Below are positions 50,505-64,000 of a DNA stretch of 64,000 bases, piece after piece. Under the pieces are notes generated by a model. That model made no database searches, was not told the origin of the DNA, and was given only the letters and a program-made list of their open reading frames with translations. The number at the start of each line of letters is the position of its first letter. The stretch's first letter is position 1. This DNA is from an uncultured Candidatus Izemoplasmatales bacterium (GTDB lineage: Bacteria; Bacillota_I; Bacilli_A; Izemoplasmatales; Hujiaoplasmataceae), in NCBI GenBank assembly GCA_964483655.1, contig CAZABW010000003.1, forward strand, positions 12,252 through 76,251, in the 5' to 3' direction. A program made the position numbers and the translations under genes.

Positions 50505-50533
50505 TTGACAACGCTTTCATAATCCCTTATAAT
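50505..50533 (+). promoter_or_regulatory. consensus sigma-A promoter of the lysine fermentation operon
   Basis: TTGACA (50505-50510), 17-nt spacer, TATAAT (50528-50533). Confidence 0.7.
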
Positions 50534-50544
50534 GGAGGTACAAT

Positions 50545-50712
50545 TTCATGTTTCACAGAGGAGCGATTACTCTGGTAGATCATTGATGATAATAAGCTGA
50601 ACCTTAGAGGCAATGATTCAAGGAGGGTAGTCGCCGAAAGAGAAAAATCGTTCATATTTTTGCTCTTGGTGACGGTGCGAAGCACCCCCACTGCCATTTC
50701 GATGGAGCGCTG
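50545..50712 (+). promoter_or_regulatory. lysine riboswitch (L-box) aptamer-like leader
   Basis: Contains AGAGGAGCG (50557-50565), AAGCTGAA, GGGTAGTCGCCGAAAG, CACTGCCA and GGAGCGC, in the same order as the conserved L-box blocks. A 10-bp helix pairs 50563-50572 with 50625-50634. Local hairpins GGTGC-gaa-GCACC and CCAT-ttcg-ATGG. Confidence 0.7.
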
Positions 50713-50742
50713 TTATATTCAATTGAATATAGCAGTTTTTTT
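50710..50742 (+). terminator. leader terminator (riboswitch expression platform)
   Basis: CTGTTATATTC-aatt-GAATATAGCAG (one G-U) followed by TTTTTTT, 20 nt before the first ORF. Confidence 0.75.
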
Positions 50743-50762
50743 ATTATAAAAAGGAGGATCGT

Positions 50763-51191
50763 ATGTCATTTTACCCCATTGAAGCGATTGTATTGAACCA
50801 AAGCGGAACCGTCACGAAAACATTTTCTGAAGCGGATGTGATTGAGTTCGCTCGAGTTACCGGGGATCAAAACCCCGTTCACCTTCATGAAGAATACGCC
50901 AAAACCACGATGTTTCAACGTCGGATTGTTCATGGTTTTTTTGTTGGTAGTTTGTTCTCTCAAATTATCGGCACCAATTTCCCTGGTCTTGGGACAGTAT
51001 ATACGTTCCAAAGTATGAAATTTACTCGTCCTGTTTATTTGGACGATACCATTACAGCTACTGTCACTGCGAAAGAGATTATTCTAGAGAAGAATCGTGT
51101 CTTGTTAGAATGTGTTGCGAAAAACCAACACGGTGAGATTGTCATCATTGGTGAAGCGACAGTTATGCCACCAAAAGGAGTTCAACAATGA
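50763..51191 (+). CDS. MaoC-like (R)-specific enoyl-CoA hydratase/dehydratase (hot-dog fold)
   Basis: 142 aa with TGDQNPVHL and IVHG motifs. Confidence 0.75.
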   Translation: MSFYPIEAIVLNQSGTVTKTFSEADVIEFARVTGDQNPVHLHEEYAKTTMFQRRIVHGFFVGSLFSQIIGTNFPGLGTVYTFQSMKFTRPVYLDDTITATVTAKEIILEKNRVLLECVAKNQHGEIVIIGEATVMPPKGVQQ

Positions 51192-53674: not shown

Positions 53675-54718
53675 ATGCAAGGTTGTCGCTATGGAACCCA
53701 TCGGGTGATGGAACCCAAAGGAGTATTGCCTCAAGCTGCCCAAAAAATTGATTCCACGATGACGATTTATGATAATGAACTCCTCATCGATGTAGAGACT
53801 TTAAATATTGATAGTGCTTCTTTTACCCAACTAAAACAAGCTTGTGGAAACTCGATAGAAGCATTAAAAGAAATGATTATGGAGATTGTCTCTAGTCGCG
53901 GGAAAATGCAAAATCCCGTTACCGGTAGTGGCGGGATGTTGCTAGGGAAAATCGCTCAAATTGGACGAAATTTCAAAACTGATCTCCAACTTGGAGATGA
54001 AATCGCAACACTTGTTTCCTTATCCCTGACCCCGTTAAAAATCGATGAAATACTGGCCATTGATTTATCCAACGATCAAGTTCGGATTAAGGGCCAAGCC
54101 ATTCTTTTCGAAAGTGGAATTTTCGCAAAAATTCCTCAAGATTTAGATCGTTATGTTGTCTTAAGCGCTTTAGACGTAGCTGGAGCTGCGATGCAAACCA
54201 AGCACCTTGTAAAATCAGGTGATTCGGTCTTAATCCTTGGAGCGGCAGGGAAGAGTGGGTTACTTTGTTCCTTACAAGCGAAGCTCTCAGCAGGTCCCAA
54301 GGGCAATGTTATCGGGATTATTTATGAAGAAAAACAACGAGTTGAACTACAGACGCTTCAAGCGTGTGACCATATTATCGTCGCCGATGCACGAAATCCG
54401 ATTGCGATTTTAGAGGCAGTAAAAGCCGTAAATCACGGTGAAAAAGTTGATGTAACAATCAACGTTGTTAATGTACCTAATACCGAAATGTCATCCATCT
54501 TACCGACTAAAGATAGCGGGAAAGTCTATTTCTTCAGTATGGCAACCTCGTTTCAAAAAGCTGCTCTAGGTGCAGAAGGGATCGCCTCAGAAGCCACGTT
54601 ATTGATTGGAAATGGCTATTCCAGTGGACACAGTGAATGGACACTAAATTTACTACGCAATCATCCTACGCTTCTTAAAATCTTTCAAGCGCGTTATGGA
54701 AAGGAGTCTTCCAAATGA
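53675..54718 (+). CDS. kdd: L-erythro-3,5-diaminohexanoate dehydrogenase
   Basis: 347 aa. N-terminal MQGCRYGTHRVMEPKGVLPQ resembles known Kdd N-termini; Rossmann ILGAAGKSG; operon position. Confidence 0.75.
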   Translation: MQGCRYGTHRVMEPKGVLPQAAQKIDSTMTIYDNELLIDVETLNIDSASFTQLKQACGNSIEALKEMIMEIVSSRGKMQNPVTGSGGMLLGKIAQIGRNFKTDLQLGDEIATLVSLSLTPLKIDEILAIDLSNDQVRIKGQAILFESGIFAKIPQDLDRYVVLSALDVAGAAMQTKHLVKSGDSVLILGAAGKSGLLCSLQAKLSAGPKGNVIGIIYEEKQRVELQTLQACDHIIVADARNPIAILEAVKAVNHGEKVDVTINVVNVPNTEMSSILPTKDSGKVYFFSMATSFQKAALGAEGIASEATLLIGNGYSSGHSEWTLNLLRNHPTLLKIFQARYGKESSK

Positions 54719-55971
54719 TTATCACCAACGATTCTTATTTAGAACGAAAGAAACATTTATATCCTCATGTTACAGACGAACAATGGTCTTCTTGGCACTG
54801 GCAAGTCAAGAACCGACTTCAAACCGTGGAGGAACTGGAAGCCGTTCTCCCACTAACTGTAGAACAAAAGCAACATATCAAAGGGGTCTTAGGAAAATTC
54901 CGGATGGCGATTACTCCTTATTATCTTTCCTTAATTGATCCAAATAATCCTCACTGCCCCATCCGAAAACAAGCCGTTCCCGGTTTTGAGGAGTTAGTGA
55001 TTGGGAAACATGATATGACCGATCCCTTAGCAGAAGATATTGATAGTCCTGTACCTGGATTAACCCATCGTTATCCAGACCGGGTCTTATTCTTAATTAC
55101 CGATATGTGCTCGATGTATTGTCGCCATTGTACGAGAAGACGCTTTGCGGGACAAATGGATCATGCGATGCCGGAATCACGAATTGATCAAGCAATCGCT
55201 TATATTCGTGCCAATCCTCAAATCCGCGATGTATTACTGTCGGGGGGCGATGCGTTATTAGTGAGTGACGCCTTTTTAGAAAGTATCATCCAAAAACTGC
55301 GCCAAATCGATCACGTGGAAGTGATTCGAATTGGTACGAGAACCCCGGTTGTCTTACCGCAGCGGATTACCCCAGAACTGGTCAACATGTTAAAGAAATA
55401 TCATCCTATTTGGGTGAATACTCATTTTAATCATCCCGACGAGATTACCAAAGAAAGCAAAGCAGCGATTGATTTATTAGCGGACGCTGGCATTCCTTTA
55501 GGCAATCAATCGGTTTTACTAGCAGGTATCAATGACTGCGTCCATGTGATGCGTAAACTCGTTACCAAACTAGCGCACATTCGTGTTCGTCCTTATTACA
55601 TCTACCAATGTGACTTATCGATGGGAATCGAACATTTCCGAACGCCTGTTTCCAAAGGAATCGAAATCATTGAGGGACTTCGTGGCCATGTCAGTGGATA
55701 TTGTGTCCCAACCTTTGTGGTGGACGCTCCTGGCGGGGGAGGTAAAATCCCGGTTATGCCCAATTACCTTATTTCACAAGCGCCTGGAAAAACGATTTTA
55801 AGAAACTTTGAAGGCGTTATCGCTACCTATTATGAACCTACTCATTATGAAGAAACTTGCCAATGCGAAGCTTGCCAAGGGAAAGACGCTAACTTATCTG
55901 TTCCTCTCGGAGGCGAACATCATTCTTCACGATTAGAAAGAAGGGAAGAACTATCCAACAAGCATTCTTAG
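54715..55971 (+). CDS. kamA: L-lysine 2,3-aminomutase (radical SAM, PLP)
   Basis: CSMYCRHCTRRR cluster motif, LSGGDAL, PYYIYQCD; 418 aa. Confidence 0.9.
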   Translation: MIITNDSYLERKKHLYPHVTDEQWSSWHWQVKNRLQTVEELEAVLPLTVEQKQHIKGVLGKFRMAITPYYLSLIDPNNPHCPIRKQAVPGFEELVIGKHDMTDPLAEDIDSPVPGLTHRYPDRVLFLITDMCSMYCRHCTRRRFAGQMDHAMPESRIDQAIAYIRANPQIRDVLLSGGDALLVSDAFLESIIQKLRQIDHVEVIRIGTRTPVVLPQRITPELVNMLKKYHPIWVNTHFNHPDEITKESKAAIDLLADAGIPLGNQSVLLAGINDCVHVMRKLVTKLAHIRVRPYYIYQCDLSMGIEHFRTPVSKGIEIIEGLRGHVSGYCVPTFVVDAPGGGGKIPVMPNYLISQAPGKTILRNFEGVIATYYEPTHYEETCQCEACQGKDANLSVPLGGEHHSSRLERREELSNKHS

Positions 55972-55991
55972 ACCAAATCAAACCCTATCAT

Positions 55992-56987
55992 GTGATCTCG
56001 ATTGTCGGAAATGCGAAAAACGCAGGTAAGACAACGGTTTTAAACACGCTTATTGAAGCCTATCAACATGACCCGATTGCGATAACATCGATTGGTTTGG
56101 ATGGGGAAATGCTTGATCAAATCACACGTCTACCGAAACCGCGTATTACGGTTTACCCAGGAATGCTCGTCGCCACCGCAAAGGATACCTTGCGTCAAGC
56201 GACCGCGGATTACGATGTGATTGAAACGTTAGATATCTCCTCTGCCCTTGGGCCAATTGTGATTGTCTTGGTTCGAAGTCTTGGTCATATGATTTGCGCA
56301 GGACCCTCTCAAATACGACAATTAAAAAAACTCGTATGTCGATTGAAACAGATGAATTTAACCAAGATTTTCATAGATGGCGCGTTTGCACGCCAACAAT
56401 TAAGTCGACTTGGCGATGCGACCATTCTTTGTGTAGGAGCTTCGAGTGCTTACCAAGATGATCAAGTCATTCAAAAATCATTGACCCTGATACACAAATT
56501 TTCACTTCCGGGGTTGCCCATGAAGTATCAAAACTTACCCCCTGTGGAAGAGGTTGTTGGACTCGATGAAGGGGGAAATATTCTTGATTTACCGTTTGAC
56601 TCAACGATTTCGATTCAAGTGGAAACGGTAAAGAAAATTCCGGTTCATACCATCAAAGCAATCTATTTTCCTCATGCTGTGAGTGAATCCTTTTGTCAAG
56701 CATGGTTGAGTCAAAAGAAACTTCATACGATTGCTTGGATGATTCAAAGTCCATCTCACTTGATTTGTTCGGAGCGGACCTTTGAAAAACTCCGTCAGAT
56801 TGACCAATCGATTTTCTGTCAATACCCTGTCCATGTTGTTTGTGTCTGTTATAATCCCTTTCGCCCTAATGGCGAAGCAATGAACTCTCAGTGGTTTTAT
56901 CAGGAACTACGTAGTCAAATCGAGTATCCCGTCTATAATGTCTTACATCCCGAGGTATCTTATGAATCAATTGACTCTCTCTCATGA
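55992..56987 (+). CDS. uncharacterised protein with an N-terminal P-loop-like motif
   Basis: GTG start, 331 aa. Residues 5-14 are VGNAKNAGKT (Walker-A-like, MobB-style). Its 3' end overlaps the kamD start by 26 nt. Confidence 0.55.
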   Translation: MISIVGNAKNAGKTTVLNTLIEAYQHDPIAITSIGLDGEMLDQITRLPKPRITVYPGMLVATAKDTLRQATADYDVIETLDISSALGPIVIVLVRSLGHMICAGPSQIRQLKKLVCRLKQMNLTKIFIDGAFARQQLSRLGDATILCVGASSAYQDDQVIQKSLTLIHKFSLPGLPMKYQNLPPVEEVVGLDEGGNILDLPFDSTISIQVETVKKIPVHTIKAIYFPHAVSESFCQAWLSQKKLHTIAWMIQSPSHLICSERTFEKLRQIDQSIFCQYPVHVVCVCYNPFRPNGEAMNSQWFYQELRSQIEYPVYNVLHPEVSYESIDSLS

Positions 56988-58515
56988 ACGCATTCAAGAA
57001 TGTCGGAAACTAGCGAAGAAAATCGCAACCGATGTGCAATATTTTATCGACCAACATACCACGAAAACCGTTGAACGAGCGATTTTGCGGATGCTTGGTG
57101 TCGATGGGGTGGATGCGCAAGAAGTTCCCATTGTGAATCGTTTGGTCGATCACTTAGAAGAACAAGGAAAACTGGCAGATGGGATTTCCATTTGGATAGC
57201 GACTAGGATGAAATCTCAACGAAAAACCTTAGAAGCAGTGGTCCAGGATTTTATCGAACGCGATATCTCGTTCGTGGAAGGGGATCTAATCCCTCAAAGT
57301 GAAGCGATGAACTTGTTACTTCCTTATGTGGATCGTTCGCTAGATACTGTATTACGAAATAAACAAATTCGCCAAGAACAATTAGCAAAGTCCCCTAAAA
57401 AAACTACCGAGCTCTATGTTATTGTCGCAACAGGAAACATCCATGAAGATGTCAAACAAGCCAAGGCCGCTGCAGAAAGTGGCGCTGATATTATCGCTGT
57501 CATTCGGACAACCGGACAATCCCTCCTCGATTATGTTCCCTATGGGCTAACCACCGAAGGGTTTGGAGGAACATATGCAACCCAAGCGAATTTCAAACTC
57601 ATGCGCAAAGCCCTTGATGAAGTAGGAGAAACCTTAGGGCGTTATATCAAACTCGTCAATTATGCTTCGGGATTGTGCATGCCAGAAATCGCCGCAATGG
57701 CTGCTTTGGAACGTCTGGATGTGTTATTAAATGATTCCATGTATGGGATTATTTTCCGTGACATCAATATGAAACGGACCTTCGTAGATCAATTCTTTTC
57801 ACGCCGAATCAATGCGTTTGCTGGGATTATCATAAATACAGGAGAAGATAATTATTTAACAACAGCTGATGCCATTGACGAGGCTCATACGGTGTTAGCT
57901 TCTCAATTTATCAACGAACAATTTGCTTTTTTAGCGAAATTAAAAGAAGAACTGATGGGGTTGGGACATGCTTTCGAAATTGATCCTCATGTGAAAAATG
58001 GCTTTTTATATGAAATTGCTCAGGCGCAAATGGCCCGCCAAATCTTCCCGAAAGCGCCGTTAAAATACATGCCGCCAACCAAGCACATTAACGGAAATAT
58101 CTTCCGTGCTTATCAACAAAACACTTTATTTAATGTCGCAACGCAAATGACCAATCAATCGATTCATTTGTTAGGTATTTTAACCGAAGCCATCCACACG
58201 CCATTTTTAAGCGATCGTCATCTTGCCATTCAAAATGCTAAAATGATTCAAACAACGATGGCAGATTTCGCAGATGAGATCGAGTATAAGCGCGGAGGAA
58301 TCATCGAATCACGAGCGCAAGAAGTGCTTGAAAAAGCGCATGAGTTATTAAAGAATATCGCTAAAGATGGACTTTTCAACAGTTTAGAAAAAGGTGTTTT
58401 TGCGAATGTGAAACGATCTCCTGATGGAGGAAAAGGATTACTGGGAGTGAAGGAAAAAAGTCCACATTACTTCAATGTCATACTGGATCGAATGGAGGCT
58501 TACGATGCTAATTAG
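56962..58515 (+). CDS. kamD: lysine 5,6-aminomutase alpha subunit
   Basis: ~517 aa from the ATG at 56962. The N-terminus (...KLAKKIATDVQYFIDQHTT) resembles C. sticklandii KamD as I recall it; followed by the B12-binding subunit. Confidence 0.8.
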   Translation: MNQLTLSHERIQECRKLAKKIATDVQYFIDQHTTKTVERAILRMLGVDGVDAQEVPIVNRLVDHLEEQGKLADGISIWIATRMKSQRKTLEAVVQDFIERDISFVEGDLIPQSEAMNLLLPYVDRSLDTVLRNKQIRQEQLAKSPKKTTELYVIVATGNIHEDVKQAKAAAESGADIIAVIRTTGQSLLDYVPYGLTTEGFGGTYATQANFKLMRKALDEVGETLGRYIKLVNYASGLCMPEIAAMAALERLDVLLNDSMYGIIFRDINMKRTFVDQFFSRRINAFAGIIINTGEDNYLTTADAIDEAHTVLASQFINEQFAFLAKLKEELMGLGHAFEIDPHVKNGFLYEIAQAQMARQIFPKAPLKYMPPTKHINGNIFRAYQQNTLFNVATQMTNQSIHLLGILTEAIHTPFLSDRHLAIQNAKMIQTTMADFADEIEYKRGGIIESRAQEVLEKAHELLKNIAKDGLFNSLEKGVFANVKRSPDGGKGLLGVKEKSPHYFNVILDRMEAYDAN

Positions 58516-59239
58516 ACCTTATGGAGATACTTTAGATGATGGCAAGATTCAAATCAGTTTTAGCTTGCCATTGGAATTATCAGCTCATTCGATAGAAGTA
58601 GCGAAACAGTATTCGGAACAACTTCAACTTGTGGATGTAAGTATTGTTCATGCGGAATCATTAGGAAAAGGTTTTAGCTTTTACATCGTCTATGGAAGGT
58701 CAACAATCGCCATTGACCCAACCAAGATTACCGTTCAAGACGTGGAAACGACAGCCCTGAGTAAAGAAGAAATTGAACAACTCATTCAAGATAAAATTGG
58801 TCGTGATATCGTTATTATAGGGGCATCTACAGGCTCGGATGCTCATACCGTTGGAATTGATGCAATTATGAATATGAAAGGCTATGCCGGTCATTATGGC
58901 TTGGAACGATACCATCATATCCAAGCGCATAATCTTGGATCCCAAGTTCCAAATGAATGGTTTGTGAAACAAGCCAAAGAGCTTCATGCAGATGTTTTAT
59001 TGGTGAGTCAAACGGTTACCCAAAAAGAAGTTCATATTAAAAATTTAATCGAATTAGTCGAACTGTTAGAAGCCGAAAATATGCGTGATCAAGTCATCTT
59101 GATTTGTGGCGGAGCCCGAATTACCCATGAACTAGCCAAGGAACTTGGGTATGATGCGGGATTTGGACCAGGGAAATTCGCTGAAGATGTCGCTACATTT
59201 GCGGTCATGGAGCTCATTAAGAAGCAATCGAATTCATAG
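58505..59239 (+). CDS. kamE: lysine 5,6-aminomutase beta subunit (cobalamin-binding)
   Basis: RPYGDTLDDGKIQISFSLPL at the N-terminus and the DxHxxG base-off B12 motif (GSDAHTVGIDA). 11-nt overlap with kamD. Confidence 0.85.
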   Translation: MLIRPYGDTLDDGKIQISFSLPLELSAHSIEVAKQYSEQLQLVDVSIVHAESLGKGFSFYIVYGRSTIAIDPTKITVQDVETTALSKEEIEQLIQDKIGRDIVIIGASTGSDAHTVGIDAIMNMKGYAGHYGLERYHHIQAHNLGSQVPNEWFVKQAKELHADVLLVSQTVTQKEVHIKNLIELVELLEAENMRDQVILICGGARITHELAKELGYDAGFGPGKFAEDVATFAVMELIKKQSNS

Positions 59240-59279
59240 TTCGATGGATGGATTTTGTACCTTATTCACCGAATGACAG

Positions 59280-59308
59280 AAAAAAAACACGCAAAGTCGT
59301 GTTTTTTT
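59280..59308 (+). terminator. intrinsic terminator of the lysine operon
   Basis: AAAAAAACACG-caaagt-CGTGTTTTTTT. Confidence 0.85.
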
Positions 59309-59347
59309 CTTCGAGTTATCTTTTCAATCTCGATAGATGGGTATAGA

Positions 59348-59857
59348 ATGAAGAAGGATGTGATAATGATGAAACGACTCGTTCTTTGTTTGGGGTTGCT
59401 TTTGGTTTTATTCGGTTGTCAAACAACAACAACAACAACAACTGCTTCCTTAGAACCGACCTCCACTGGCATGTATGCAATCTATCGACAACAAGTTTAC
59501 CTTCATTTCAAAGATTTTAGTTTGGATGAGTTTACTTTGGATGTTTTTTGGGCTGAAGATTATGAAACGATTGTCATCGATTCACAGTTAGAAGCGTTGT
59601 GTCAAGCCACTTTAAATCCCTTCGTTACCGACTGGGACAGTTTACAATTTATGCCAGGGATGGCAGAGTTTGATGTGAAAGCTCGTTGGGTGTGGACCAA
59701 AGACAATCAAGTCGCTACAATCGAATATCAATTATCTTTTCAAGATATCTACTACCTTGTCATTAGCTATCAAAATCAGGACCTCATCACACATAGCGCT
59801 ACCTTAACAGGGGACATGATCCCTCGAGATTTATTATCTACCCTGTTGCCTGAATAG
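59348..59857 (+). CDS. lipoprotein of unknown function
   Basis: Lipobox LVLFGC followed by a poly-Thr linker. The start must lie after the terminator; ATG at 59348, 59366 or 59369 are all possible. Confidence 0.55.
   Translation: MKKDVIMMKRLVLCLGLLLVLFGCQTTTTTTTASLEPTSTGMYAIYRQQVYLHFKDFSLDEFTLDVFWAEDYETIVIDSQLEALCQATLNPFVTDWDSLQFMPGMAEFDVKARWVWTKDNQVATIEYQLSFQDIYYLVISYQNQDLITHSATLTGDMIPRDLLSTLLPE
59422..59442 (+). repeat. (AAC)7 trinucleotide microsatellite encoding the poly-Thr linker
   Basis: Seven perfect AAC units, read in frame as ACA/ACT Thr codons immediately after the lipobox Cys-Gln. Confidence 0.9.
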
Positions 59858-59884
59858 GTATCATAAAGTTCATTCAAGGAGGGG

Positions 59885-61195
59885 ATGTCATTGAGGCACT
59901 CTCGAAAAGAACGGTTTGAACAAACACAGCGTGCACGCTGGCTTTCGAATCTATTTACTGTGTCCATGAGCGTTGTTGTCGTCGCCGTTGTGTTATTACT
60001 TCCTGAAGCCAATGCCTATGCCCAGCTCATGGATGTGTTTGCTGATCAAAACTCGATTTACTACCAAGTCTATTCGGTTCAACTCCCTAGTGAAGCTAAA
60101 GTGCCTTCAGTCCGTTTAGTAGTGGAAAGTCAGTTTGAGACAATCACCGAAGAACTTCCCGATGGGGACGTTCAAGGACGAATATCTAATTTGCGAGAGA
60201 ACACCCAATATCAGGTAAAACTCGTCGGCAATAAGGGGTTTGGCGATTATCTCATGGATCAAATGACCATTCGTACCATCGCAAGTCCTCAAGTCCGGTT
60301 GTTTTTAGAAACGAGTTCACTCCCAGATTCAGAAGAAGTATGGGTAAGTGGTCATTTCATTGGAGAATTGCCCACCGATGGTACGTTGTCTCTTTGGATG
60401 GCTGTGGGATATGGCAATCAGGTTCCTTACAGAGACGATTATGAGCCGATTGACTTTACGGACTCCGCCTTTGAACTCTCTCCAATGTATGCTTATGGCC
60501 AAACCTTATTTTTTCTGCTAGACTGGACCAATTCTGAAAATGTGACAACCATCTTGGTTCAAAATACGTTGCGATTAGTTCAAGAATCGATGCACTCTTT
60601 GTATTTGAGTGCACTAGGACCCCATCATCTTGGTGTTCATGCATATCCTCCTTCTGATTTAGGGAGTCATGTTTCCCTTGAACTTCGTGTTCTTGAAAAA
60701 AGCCGGATCCTTCATAAAAAAGTGATTTCGTTCTCATCACAGGACCACTATGAATCCCCTGACCCCCATTTCTTTTTCGGTCTAAAACAAAATACTCTTT
60801 ATATTCTGGAACTATGGGCAAGGTATTATGACGCTATTTTAAATCGTCAGATTGAGAAGCGAATCGATCAAATCGAAGTATTTACCCCTCCCCTCTTTCA
60901 GATTCAAATTCTTGAAGTCTTTCAAGAGGGAGCGAAATGGGAGGTTATTGTCAATGACCCTTCTTCAGTGTTACAGGAAACTCAAGTCATGATCCACTTT
61001 CTTGAAACCAATCAACACTATTTTGCCTCCCTTGTATTGCAAGAACAAGTGGATGGAACGATGAAAGCCGTTATTCAGGTTCCAAACGCATCGGTAGGTG
61101 CGTATGAAATGCAGATTGTCGCTACGATAGCCCTTGAAAATGAAGTCAGTTATTTCATGGTTGAACTAACCAGGAAGGAAGGAATTTACGAATGA
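59885..61195 (+). CDS. single-pass membrane protein with about four extracellular beta-sandwich-like modules, function unknown
   Basis: Basic cytoplasmic N-terminus and one TM helix (VSMSVVVVAVVLLLP). Then ~95-aa segments with FN3-like endings (NTQYQVKLVG, NTLYILELWA). RBS aaggagggg. Confidence 0.55.
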   Translation: MSLRHSRKERFEQTQRARWLSNLFTVSMSVVVVAVVLLLPEANAYAQLMDVFADQNSIYYQVYSVQLPSEAKVPSVRLVVESQFETITEELPDGDVQGRISNLRENTQYQVKLVGNKGFGDYLMDQMTIRTIASPQVRLFLETSSLPDSEEVWVSGHFIGELPTDGTLSLWMAVGYGNQVPYRDDYEPIDFTDSAFELSPMYAYGQTLFFLLDWTNSENVTTILVQNTLRLVQESMHSLYLSALGPHHLGVHAYPPSDLGSHVSLELRVLEKSRILHKKVISFSSQDHYESPDPHFFFGLKQNTLYILELWARYYDAILNRQIEKRIDQIEVFTPPLFQIQILEVFQEGAKWEVIVNDPSSVLQETQVMIHFLETNQHYFASLVLQEQVDGTMKAVIQVPNASVGAYEMQIVATIALENEVSYFMVELTRKEGIYE

Positions 61196-62151
61196 AACAT
61201 TGGAAGGAAATGAGTCGGTCAAAACGAATCTGGATGATCGGGTTACTGGTGTTAATTTTACTTCTTTTGATTGCGAGTTCTTTAGCAAGTGTCTTGTTTC
61301 CAAATACGTTATTTTCTCAAGTGGTAGATCAAAGCATTGGCAAATTTTTTAATCTCTTTGGCTTTTTTGTGGACAATTATGTCAGACTTTTGGAAACAGC
61401 GACGATTATTTTCTTTGTTTGGTTGATTGCGAAAGTGATTCAATTTCTCATTCAAATCACCACGAACAAATCACAACGATCCCAAACCGTCGGTGCTTTA
61501 TTTTCCTCCATCATTAAATATGGATCGGTACTTCTTATGGTATTTTTGATTCTTGCTGCTTGGGGAGTTCAAACGCAAACGTTGTTAGCTGGTGCTGGGA
61601 TTTTAGGTCTCGCATTATCCTTTGGAGCACAAAGTTTAATTGAGGATGTCATTAGTGGTTTATTCTTAATCTTTGAGCGACAATTTCAAGTGGGCGATGT
61701 CATTCAGATTGATTCGTTTCGAGGAACGGTGATTGAAATCGGGATTCGAGCCACTCGATTTGAAGATTTGAATGGGGACATTAAAATCGTCAATAACTCA
61801 GATATTAGAGGAGCCATCAACACCTCAGCTCATTTATCTTTAGCGATTTGCGATGTCTCAGTTAGTTATGGAGCGAATTTAAAAGAAGTCGAGCAAGTCA
61901 TTTTAGATGCTCTACCAGACATCAAAAACCAAATTCCAGACATTCAGGAAGGCCCAACGTATCGCGGGGTTCAATCGTTAGGAGAATCCAGCGTCGTTTT
62001 ACGTGTCGTTGCGAAAGCCCCAGAAATGAAGAAATATCAAGTCACTCGGGATTTAAACCGTGCTATCAAACTACTTTTTGATGAAAAAGGCGTCCAAATT
62101 CCATTTCCCCAATTGGTGGTTCATATGGAGTCGGAAGTGAAAAAAGACTAG
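61192..62151 (+). CDS. MscS-family mechanosensitive channel
   Basis: 319 aa, three TM helices followed by GAQSLIEDVISGLFLIFERQFQVGDVI, the conserved MscS pore/beta-domain motif. ATGA overlap with the upstream gene. Confidence 0.85.
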   Translation: MKHWKEMSRSKRIWMIGLLVLILLLLIASSLASVLFPNTLFSQVVDQSIGKFFNLFGFFVDNYVRLLETATIIFFVWLIAKVIQFLIQITTNKSQRSQTVGALFSSIIKYGSVLLMVFLILAAWGVQTQTLLAGAGILGLALSFGAQSLIEDVISGLFLIFERQFQVGDVIQIDSFRGTVIEIGIRATRFEDLNGDIKIVNNSDIRGAINTSAHLSLAICDVSVSYGANLKEVEQVILDALPDIKNQIPDIQEGPTYRGVQSLGESSVVLRVVAKAPEMKKYQVTRDLNRAIKLLFDEKGVQIPFPQLVVHMESEVKKD

Positions 62152-62264: not shown

Positions 62265-62804
62265 ATGAAAAACGAACCCCTAATTCGAAATATTTCCACG
62301 ACGACCGGAGATAAAGGCACCACCCAAAATTATTCTTCTGAAACCCTGAAGAAAACTGATTTGTTATTTGAAGCGCTCGGTGCAATGGATGAGTTATCCA
62401 GCCATTTAGGATTGTGTTATCACTATACGCAAGAACTTGATTTGATGCAAATTCAACGAATCTTACAAACGATTAACTCCTTACTGGCTACAAATCCAAA
62501 AACCGACGCTTCTCGATATGAAAAACTAACGAAAGTAACAGAAGAAGATATTGCTTGGCTCGAGTCCTTAGGTGAAATGATGCTTCAAAAAAAACCTCTC
62601 GAACCTCGGTTTGTTTTGCCTGGTAGTGAATCGACACTTCCCGGAGCCTATGTTGATGTAGCGAGAGCGGTGTGTCGTCGCTGTGAGCGACAAGTGATTC
62701 GATTTCGCGATCAAGCAGAACGTGAGGATTTACATAAACCACTCATCTTCTTAAATCGTTGTTCGGATTATCTCTTTTTACTCGCTCGTTCATTCTTAGA
62801 ATAA
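62265..62804 (+). CDS. pduO: PduO-type ATP:cob(I)alamin adenosyltransferase
   Basis: TTTGDKGTT near the N-terminus, ALGAMDELSSHLG and LPG motifs; 179 aa. Confidence 0.85.
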   Translation: MKNEPLIRNISTTTGDKGTTQNYSSETLKKTDLLFEALGAMDELSSHLGLCYHYTQELDLMQIQRILQTINSLLATNPKTDASRYEKLTKVTEEDIAWLESLGEMMLQKKPLEPRFVLPGSESTLPGAYVDVARAVCRRCERQVIRFRDQAEREDLHKPLIFLNRCSDYLFLLARSFLE

Positions 62805-63021: not shown

Positions 63022-63426
63022 TTGAAATCAATTGTAATCGGCGTCATTGGAGCCGATGTTCACGCAGTAGGAAACAAGATTATTGAATATACGTTAAATA
63101 ATGCCGGCTATAATGTCATTAACATCGGCGTGCTTTCATCTCAAGAAGATTTCATCAATGCGGCCATCGAAACCAATGCCGATTTAATCATGGTTTCTTC
63201 GCTTTATGGTCACGGTGAAATCGACTGTCGAGGCATGCGCGATAAATGTGTGGAAGCCGGCATTCCCAATATATTACTCTATGTTGGTGGGAATATTGTC
63301 GTTGGAAAACAAGATTTTGATGAAGTTCGGAAACGCTTTTTTGCGATGGGATTTAACCGCGTTTACGCCCCAGGAACCAACATTGATCAGGCTTTAGCTG
63401 ACATTCGTACGGACTTAGGAGAGTAG
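63022..63426 (+). CDS. glmS: glutamate mutase (methylaspartate mutase) small, cobalamin-binding subunit
   Basis: TTG start after aaagagg. 134 aa with [11 protein letters not shown] (DxHxxG) and [13 protein letters not shown]; close to clostridial GlmS/MutS as I recall it. Confidence 0.9.
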
Positions 63427-63427
63427 T

Positions 63428-64000
63428 ATGGCGCTCTATTTGCTTATTGATTTCGGATCAACATTTACGAAATTAACAGCAGTATCCACCGAAGTACGTG
63501 ATATCATCGCTACGTCGCAACACTATACAACCGTAGAGACAGATATCACCATCGGGTATCAACATGCTTTGGATATGCTTCACGAGCGGCTTGGCTACAA
63601 GCCGCATTTTGATGAAATCATTGCTTGTTCTTCCGCGGCGGGTGGCTTAAAAATGGCTGCGATTGGGTTAGTGGAAGAATTAACTGTCGAAGCAGCGAAA
63701 CGGGTTTGTCTAGGGGCTGGAGCGAAAGTCGATTTAGTCTTTAGTCATCACTTAAATAAAAGTGAAGTACGCTTAATCCAAGAAAAAAAGATTGATATCA
63801 TCCTCTTAGCGGGGGGCGCGGATGGTGGAAACAGTGAATGCGTTCTATTTAATGCCAACATGCTTGGGGAAATGGGTGTAGCGATTCCGATTGTTTATGC
63901 TGGAAATAAATCTTGTCAAGACGAAATCAAAGACATTTTTGAGAAGTATCATCTCGATGGGTATTTCGCAGACAATGTGATGCCTAAGATTAATCAGTTA
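63428..64000 (+). CDS. glmL: glutamate mutase accessory/reactivating protein GlmL (MutL), N-terminal part; 3' end outside window
   Basis: Frame is open from the ATG at 63428 to the window end. MALYLLIDFGSTFTKLTAV (ASKHA phosphate-1 motif), SSAAGGLKM, LAGGADGGN. Confidence 0.8.
   Translation, partial: MALYLLIDFGSTFTKLTAVSTEVRDIIATSQHYTTVETDITIGYQHALDMLHERLGYKPHFDEIIACSSAAGGLKMAAIGLVEELTVEAAKRVCLGAGAKVDLVFSHHLNKSEVRLIQEKKIDIILLAGGADGGNSECVLFNANMLGEMGVAIPIVYAGNKSCQDEIKDIFEKYHLDGYFADNVMPKINQL

Follow-up and report, generated by a model that had tools for sequence, protein, structure and literature searches.

The pathway by which lysine is fermented to butyrate and acetate is widespread under anaerobic conditions and in the gut. 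Among the helpers of B12 enzymes, DdrAB/GdrAB and EutA are actin/Hsp70-like (ASKHA) ATPases, while GlmL/MutL (PF13941) is the presumed helper of glutamate mutase. The B12-dependent aminomutase of lysine fermentation rapidly inactivates itself in vitro, which has held back studies of its mechanism as well as its use in biocatalysis, so that identification of its accessory proteins is of practical interest. In classical work, the E1 core of the aminomutase is assisted by a second component, E2, which is ATP dependent, is ~80 kDa in size, and has AdoCbl synthetase activity; recombinant KamDE alone is active, yet it suicide-inactivates to cob(III)alamin (2014 review, PMC3958899). In Fusobacterium nucleatum, the pair of genes that separates kamA from kamD was labeled "HP" and "mutS" (Perret 2011, PMC3149608).

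Two curated NCBIfam families bear on such genes: NF052386, an equivalog named "lysine 5,6-aminomutase reactivase subunit KamB," and NF052383, "reactivase ATPase KamC." The letters B and C reportedly go back to a C. sticklandii clone described by Chang and Frey in 2000, in which the genes run kamA-B-C-D-E. No experimental paper on KamB or KamC was found in the open full-text literature, and "reactivase" is thus a predicted, annotation-derived label. Since NCBIfam gives the ATPase label to KamC and not to KamB, KamB may not hydrolyze NTP alone.

The gene described here lies between kamA and kamD in the window, a stretch of 64,000 nucleotides from an uncultured Candidatus Izemoplasmatales bacterium. 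Its core assignment as KamB is already known and is of low novelty; what goes beyond it is a clade-wide form of the locus that lacks KamC and a conserved, probable noncanonical start codon.

RESULTS

The open reading frame at positions 55992 to 56987 of the forward strand, 331 aa from GTG to TGA, is present in the sequence as claimed in the first-pass annotation. GTG 55992 is the first ATG/GTG/TTG codon downstream of the in-frame stop, and the N terminus read from it is VISIVGNAKNAGKTT. An initial homology search returned 146 homologues at E≤1e-3, and an exhaustive profile search at the same threshold returned 2284 clusters at 50% identity, 1207 of them with E≤1e-30; the frame is therefore far beyond a chance one. 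The best 150 of the 2284 clusters ranged in length from 291 to 373 aa and matched mostly in one unbroken stretch.

The protein matched NF052386 with 258.5 bits (E=7.3e-77; curated cutoff, 210 bits), with residues 2 to 317 aligned to model positions 1 to 326 of 326, and the same KamB name is carried by Clostridium cadaveris WP_168972508.1 in RefSeq and UniRef. Judged by these sequence matches, the gene is kamB and its product a full-length member of the curated family, although its score (258 bits) is lower than that of KamB from KamC-containing genomes (312 to 320 bits). The description of the gene as uncharacterized and unassigned is out of date, as both NCBIfam and RefSeq already name KamB. 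The putative role proposed for it in the same annotation, that of an NTP-dependent reactivase or chaperone of B12-dependent lysine 5,6-aminomutase, agrees with the curated annotation (NF052386 and RefSeq WP_168972508.1). The KamB family has neither a Pfam model nor a solved structure. Pfam gave only subthreshold P-loop matches for the window protein (FtsK, MobB, and FeoB), and PDB sequence searches returned nothing meaningful, whether the query was the protein alone or the profile of its family. A P-loop described earlier as MobB style is indeed present, but the likeness to MobB (PF03205) is limited to that loop, with a score of 12.6 to 13.3 bits over residues 1 to 34 that does not reach the gathering score of 26.6.

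The VGNAKNAGKTT motif lies at nucleotides 56004 to 56036 and includes the Walker-A-like P-loop G6-N-A-K9-N10-A-G12-K13-T14-T15 (56007 to 56036, forward strand). Residues G6, K9, N10, G12, K13, and T14 were invariant in an alignment of 37 proteins and at least 95% conserved in KamC-less and KamC-containing groups alike, and the motif thus withstood the conservation check. The pattern G-x-x-K-N-x-G-K-T-T exceeds the classic GxxxxGK[ST] by one residue, and the HMMER alignment of the KamB P-loop to HflX requires a gap. After strand 2, the segment T32-S-I-G-L-D37-G-E39 (56085 to 56108, forward strand), in which conservation of S33, G35, D37, G38, and E39 reached 95% or more in both groups, may be regarded as a candidate Mg/switch region. 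A Walker-B-like segment, D129-G-A-F-A-R134 (56376 to 56393, forward strand), showed the same degree of conservation in both groups at D129, G130, A131, and R134; in the AlphaFold model, D129-G-A closes a hydrophobic strand (residues 125 to 129) in the fashion of a Walker B motif. The C-terminal domain contains the motif N288-P289-x-x-P292 (56853 to 56867, forward strand), with N288 and P289 invariant and P292 at least 90% conserved among the 37 proteins. Conservation of at least 95% in both groups extended to N288 and P289 and, elsewhere in the protein, to N18, D42, K49, P50, G87, and G104. A candidate KamC-binding patch was sought at sites conserved in the KamC-containing clade alone; five positions between 47 and 96 emerged at first pass, and only T58 and S96 were left after better alignment, too few for interpretation.

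AlphaFold gave a confident model of KamB (pLDDT 90.7, pTM 0.87) with three parts: a P-loop domain at the N terminus, an insert rich in beta structure at residues ~50 to 100, and a second alpha/beta domain at residues ~175 to 320. A Foldseek search of the PDB with this model found no match at E<0.001. The top matches were weak and not significant (best E=0.018, TM about 0.25 to 0.33) and almost all of the SIMIBI class (BcsQ, Get3, NifH, SRP54, FleN, and ParA). The structural check suggested in the first-pass annotation thus yielded a confident model and no close relative of known structure at that threshold, and the predicted fold resembles that of SIMIBI-class NTPases only weakly.

The first-pass annotation had the gene initiated at GTG 55992, which is probably wrong. 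The reading frame is open 5' of this codon, and the peptide encoded upstream of it, QQAFLDQIKPYH, resembles the N termini of ATG-started homologues, e.g., MNFLKDLAPYHTVGIIG. A start at the ATC codon at 55953 to 55955 would add 13 codons (55953 to 55991, forward strand; IQQAFLDQIKPYH) and would overlap the last 19 nt of kamA. A purine-rich, Shine-Dalgarno-like tract, AGAAAGAAGGGA, lies at 55935 to 55946 of the forward strand, in the 3' end of kamA and 6 nt before ATC 55953. When the protein was modeled with the 13 extra residues, AlphaFold placed a helix at residues 3 to 9 with a pLDDT of about 86.

The start was surveyed in the subclade of the window, comprising 33 loci (L001, L006 to L034, L037, L038, and L042). 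In all 33, an in-frame ATT or ATC codon was present 17 or 18 codons before the Walker-A Gly, and in 16 of the 33 the stretch from the last stop to the P-loop contained no ATG, GTG, or TTG codon at all. The ATY codon overlaps the end of kamA by 13 to 19 nt across the subclade, and AAAGAAGG(A/G) is conserved 5' of it in most loci, at a spacing of about 6 to 8 nt. ATY was kept in 33/33 loci while the overlapping KamA residue varied (Ser or Leu). The conserved N-terminal helix and the clade-wide in-frame ATT/ATC codon point to ATC 55953 as the probable start of kamB, with the scattered GTG and TTG codons near the P-loop, GTG 55992 included, probably being ordinary Val and Leu codons. A weak ATC/ATT start would hold KamB at substoichiometric levels, which, we infer, would suit a catalytic helper needed in small amounts. 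This result bears on annotation, as gene calls in the clade lose the N terminus: several database entries are truncated because of the noncanonical ATT/ATC start, some of them beginning at MGNAKNAGKTT, just before the P-loop.

As the kamB frame stays open over the 3' end of kamA, a KamA-KamB fusion produced by programmed −1 frameshifting was also considered. It was ruled out on three observations: no slippery heptamer occurs in the overlap sequences inspected, many loci have an in-frame stop 5 to 8 codons 5' of ATY, and the ATY codon is conserved in every subclade locus while the KamA residue that overlaps it is variable.

In the window, kamB is the eighth of 10 codirectional, tightly packed genes that form a lysine-fermentation operon in the order dehydratase-atoDA-kal-kce-kdd-kamA-kamB-kamD-kamE, all on the forward strand. 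The genes upstream start at 50763 (MaoC-type dehydratase), 51188 (atoD), 51828 (atoA), 52463 (kal), 52816 (kce), and 53675 (kdd), followed by kamA, encoding lysine 2,3-aminomutase, at 54715 to 55971 (TIGR03820, 622.5 bits). Downstream lie kamD (56962 to 58515; NF052384, 808 bits) and kamE (58475 to 59239; NF052385, 369 bits). The 26-nt overlap reported between the 3' end of kamB and the start of kamD was verified on the sequence; it runs from the kamD ATG at 56962 to the kamB TGA at 56985 to 56987. This kamD start is backed by an NF052384 alignment that begins at residue 4, and a Shine-Dalgarno sequence, GAGGT, lies at 56952 to 56956. As to kamE, the NF052385 alignment begins at residue 13 and the homologue in locus L001 has 243 aa, so that ATG 58505 is the likely start instead of 58475, leaving an 11-nt overlap with kamD. 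Translationally, kamB is coupled to kamA upstream and to kamD downstream, and it shares a lysine-riboswitch-controlled transcript with the pathway enzymes.

The control region (50505 to 50746, forward strand) consists of a sigma-70-type consensus promoter at 50505 to 50533 (12/12 matches), a lysine riboswitch aptamer at 50548 to 50720 (RF00168, 64.6 bits), and a terminator-like hairpin at 50709 to 50736 that is followed by a T-run. The 3' strand of aptamer helix P1 (CTGTTA, 50710 to 50715) lies within the 5' arm of the hairpin (50709 to 50720); ligand-stabilized P1 should therefore block termination, which would make this an ON switch. Lysine riboswitches are usually of the OFF type; the one described here stands before a lysine-catabolic operon.

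Further downstream on the forward strand are a gene for a PduO-type cob(I)yrinic acid a,c-diamide adenosyltransferase (62265 to 62804; TIGR00636, 113.9 bits), a possible partner in cofactor regeneration, and then glmS (63022 to 63426; PF02310) and glmL of the MutL family (63428 to 64000; PF13941, E=1.5e-71), which is cut by the end of the window. The earlier placement of GlmL at 63428 is borne out by the PF13941 match. Between kamE and this block, three genes occupy 59255 to 62151. Two of them, ORFs of 200 aa and 436 aa, have no Pfam match, the 200-aa product having a signal-peptide/lipobox-like MKRLVLCLGLLLVLFGC, and the third encodes an MscS-type channel. The three-gene stretch looks like an insertion, as relatives often have the block right after kamE. 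Sequence nearly identical to window positions 54700 to 59300 occurs in metagenomes from anaerobic digesters, sludge, wastewater, and groundwater; all of the runs with this sequence were DNA metagenome runs, and none was an RNA run.

To place the locus among its relatives, at least 581 of which were found in a scan of one genome per species, the 80 closest were taken and joined with loci from an exact protein look-up, giving 82 nonredundant loci with flanks of 10 kb to either side of kamB. Of the 82, 75 contained one or more genes of lysine fermentation, and kamA lay directly upstream of kamB in 68, so that the homologues are syntenic in the way that the first-pass annotation had expected. In the 73 informative loci, those with at least 2 kb downstream of kamB, kamD or kamC was found directly 3' of kamB in 69. 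A MutS-domain-V gene was present in 18 of the 73, directly after kamB in 17 of these 18, and its product in locus L004 matched NF052383 (KamC) at 429 bits. KamC was absent from the remaining 55 informative loci, and in 52 of the 55, kamD followed kamB immediately. No KamC was found in the 64-kb window, where the best tblastn match had E=3.3, nor was there a KamC-like match in the flanks (10 kb on each side) of the KamC-less loci.

In a neighbor-joining tree of KamB, the majority of the KamC-less loci fell into a single large clade, composed of Izemoplasmatales, Acholeplasmataceae, and related Bacilli MAGs. The KamC-less loci L055, L058, and L061 formed a second, small clade inside the KamC-containing, Clostridia-type branch. 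A PduO-type adenosyltransferase gene lay within 1.5 kb after kamE in 23 of 44 KamC-less loci versus 0 of 7 KamC-containing loci, the latter number being small.

Three kinds of unusual arrangement were also seen among the loci. The Riflebacteria locus (L004/L005, 4091 to 12515) has genes for a class III aminotransferase, kce, atoDA, kdd, kamA, kamB, and kamC, and the 8.5 kb downstream contain neither kamD nor kamE; there, the reactivase genes stand apart from their presumed client. Eight loci from Acholeplasmataceae and Mariniplasma (L040, L046, L048, L051, L052, L053, L056, and L059) have a second KamD/KamE-like cluster about 3 to 9 kb downstream of kamE, followed by a GlmL/MutL-like gene. This second cluster probably encodes ornithine 4,5-aminomutase and a helper of the MutL type; each of the two aminomutases of these genomes then has its own kind of partner, KamB in one case and a MutL-type protein in the other. 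In locus L075 (5065 to 11068), the gene of a KamB-like paralogue (188.7 bits, below the NF052386 cutoff) directly follows one for a 634-aa protein whose N terminus has a B12-binding domain; a 510-aa PLP-enzyme-like protein and an FCD-family regulator are encoded close by, and neither kam genes nor KamC were found nearby. L075 may represent an uncharacterized B12/PLP enzyme with its own KamB-type helper, and its context gives a hint that proteins of the KamB type can serve B12 enzymes alone.

DISCUSSION

From the family match, the conserved motifs, and the gene neighborhood, we consider it reasonably probable that KamB of this bacterium is a P-loop accessory subunit that keeps the AdoCbl/PLP-dependent KamDE active, with KamC most likely not needed in the clade. 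The mechanism that we envisage would be analogous to that of MeaB with its adenosyltransferase, for methylmalonyl-CoA mutase, or of DdrAB, for diol dehydratase. KamDE would self-inactivate in turnover and be left holding cob(III)alamin, and KamB would recognize and bind the KamDE that bears the damaged cobalamin. Binding and hydrolysis of NTP at the GxxKNxGKTT loop and D129 might then open the B12 domain so that the dead cofactor is released, after which the PduO-type adenosyltransferase encoded nearby could re-form AdoCbl and hand the cofactor over to KamDE. In this organism and its clade, reactivation would most likely proceed without the MutS-type ATPase KamC of Clostridia.

That KamB still requires KamC, as in a canonical KamBC reactivase, and that KamC is encoded elsewhere in the genome, would fit the NCBIfam terms "subunit" for KamB and "ATPase" for KamC, as well as the retention in window KamB of residues conserved in KamC-containing genomes; the search for KamC covered the 64-kb window and the 10-kb flanks of the other loci. 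The arrangement of the genes argues against it, however. Where kamC occurs it directly follows kamB (17/18 loci), and in KamC-less loci kamD takes that place (52/55) with no KamC-like match in the flanks. The loss is clade-wide, is stable over dozens of species-level genomes, and is seen in at least two separate clades. We therefore regard a KamC encoded at a distance as unlikely. Another candidate for the ATPase partner of KamB is GlmL, which would stand in for KamC and which is encoded 6.4 kb downstream, with glutamate mutase, from 63428 in the window; a GlmL-like gene was found downstream of kamE in 24 of 44 KamC-less versus 0 of 7 KamC-containing loci. Yet in those loci GlmL always lies either within its own glmS-glmL-glmE cluster or within an ornithine-aminomutase-like one, and in 20 of the 44 KamC-less loci, the searched sequence downstream of kamE contained no GlmL gene, which makes this substitution improbable.

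We give very little credence to a third possibility, in which KamB is a P-loop protein outside cofactor maintenance, either active in MobB- or CobA-like nucleotide transfer or left as a relic after the loss of KamC. Weak Pfam MobB matches do occur in 20 of 37 family members, one homologue is labeled "molybdopterin-guanine dinucleotide biosynthesis protein" by JGI, and the motif GN.K..GKTT loosely recalls the P-loop of CobA. The MobB matches, however, span ~33 P-loop residues at about 13 bits against a threshold of 26.6, and no match to the CobA or cobW families was found at threshold. KamB as a CobA-type adenosyltransferase was considered and dropped, no family or fold match having been found. 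The strict linkage to kam genes and the 20-odd invariant residues across the 2284 clusters disfavor a relic.

Returning to KamB as the accessory subunit of KamDE, a wider reading can be put forward tentatively and with less than even confidence. Throughout the clade, KamB alone would be a complete NTPase chaperone that acts with the PduO-type adenosyltransferase in the manner of a MeaB/ATR pair, and KamC would be dispensable. KamB would then represent a structurally undescribed P-loop chaperone family that may also serve other, uncharacterized B12/PLP enzymes, as at L075, and whose dosage may be set by the AUU/AUC start. Should KamB prove to work alone, such a single-protein system would be the simplest of reactivases for coexpression with KamDE. 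As the family lacks both a Pfam model and a solved structure, determining the structure of KamB would bring a new class to the few B12-enzyme chaperones known. The remaining interest lies in the KamC-less form of the clade, in a family without a structure or biochemistry that we could find, and in the noncanonical start.

Among known proteins, MobB shares with KamB an N-terminal strand-P-loop-helix with GKTT; unlike in MobB, the likeness ends after ~33 residues, and the molybdenum cofactor has no place in the context of kamB. GlmL/MutL resembles KamB as an accessory gene embedded in the operon of a B12 mutase but is of an unrelated family and fold, and KamB has no PF13941 signal. With DdrAB/GdrAB and EutA, the genes of which likewise lie inside the operon of their enzyme, KamB would share the proposed task of freeing a suicide-inactivated AdoCbl enzyme of its damaged cobalamin in an ATP-dependent manner; unlike them, it is a P-loop protein, and it had no match to them in PDB sequence and fold searches.

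MeaB/ArgK offers a further parallel by analogy, in that KamB, too, is a small P-loop protein devoted to a single AdoCbl isomerase. The pairing of MeaB/ArgK with a PduO-type adenosyltransferase is echoed by the adenosyltransferase genes near kamE in 23/44 KamC-less loci, and MeaB/ArgK is a G3E, SIMIBI-class GTPase, the class to which the best, if weak, structural neighbors of KamB also belong. KamB differs in the length of its P-loop, in having no NKxD motif that could be seen, and in its extra beta-rich insert and C-terminal domain. No sequence relationship of KamB to MeaB, ArgK, or CobW was detected; the window protein had no cobW or ArgK match, and only 2 of 37 KamB members matched the cobW family (PF02492), at E=0.024. 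The likeness to MeaB and DdrAB is thus one of functional analogy and not of family membership.

The KamB-KamC system (NF052386 and NF052383), with the classical E2 activating protein of Clostridium sticklandii, is that of the family itself. Window KamB is full length, above the cutoff, and identical in its invariant motifs, and its gene likewise stands after kamA and before the aminomutase genes. Unlike canonical kamB, however, it is not followed by kamC and adjoins kamD directly, its product has the lower family score, and, whereas kamB of the KamC-containing clade starts with ATG, the gene of the window has a probable noncanonical ATC/ATT start that overlaps kamA.
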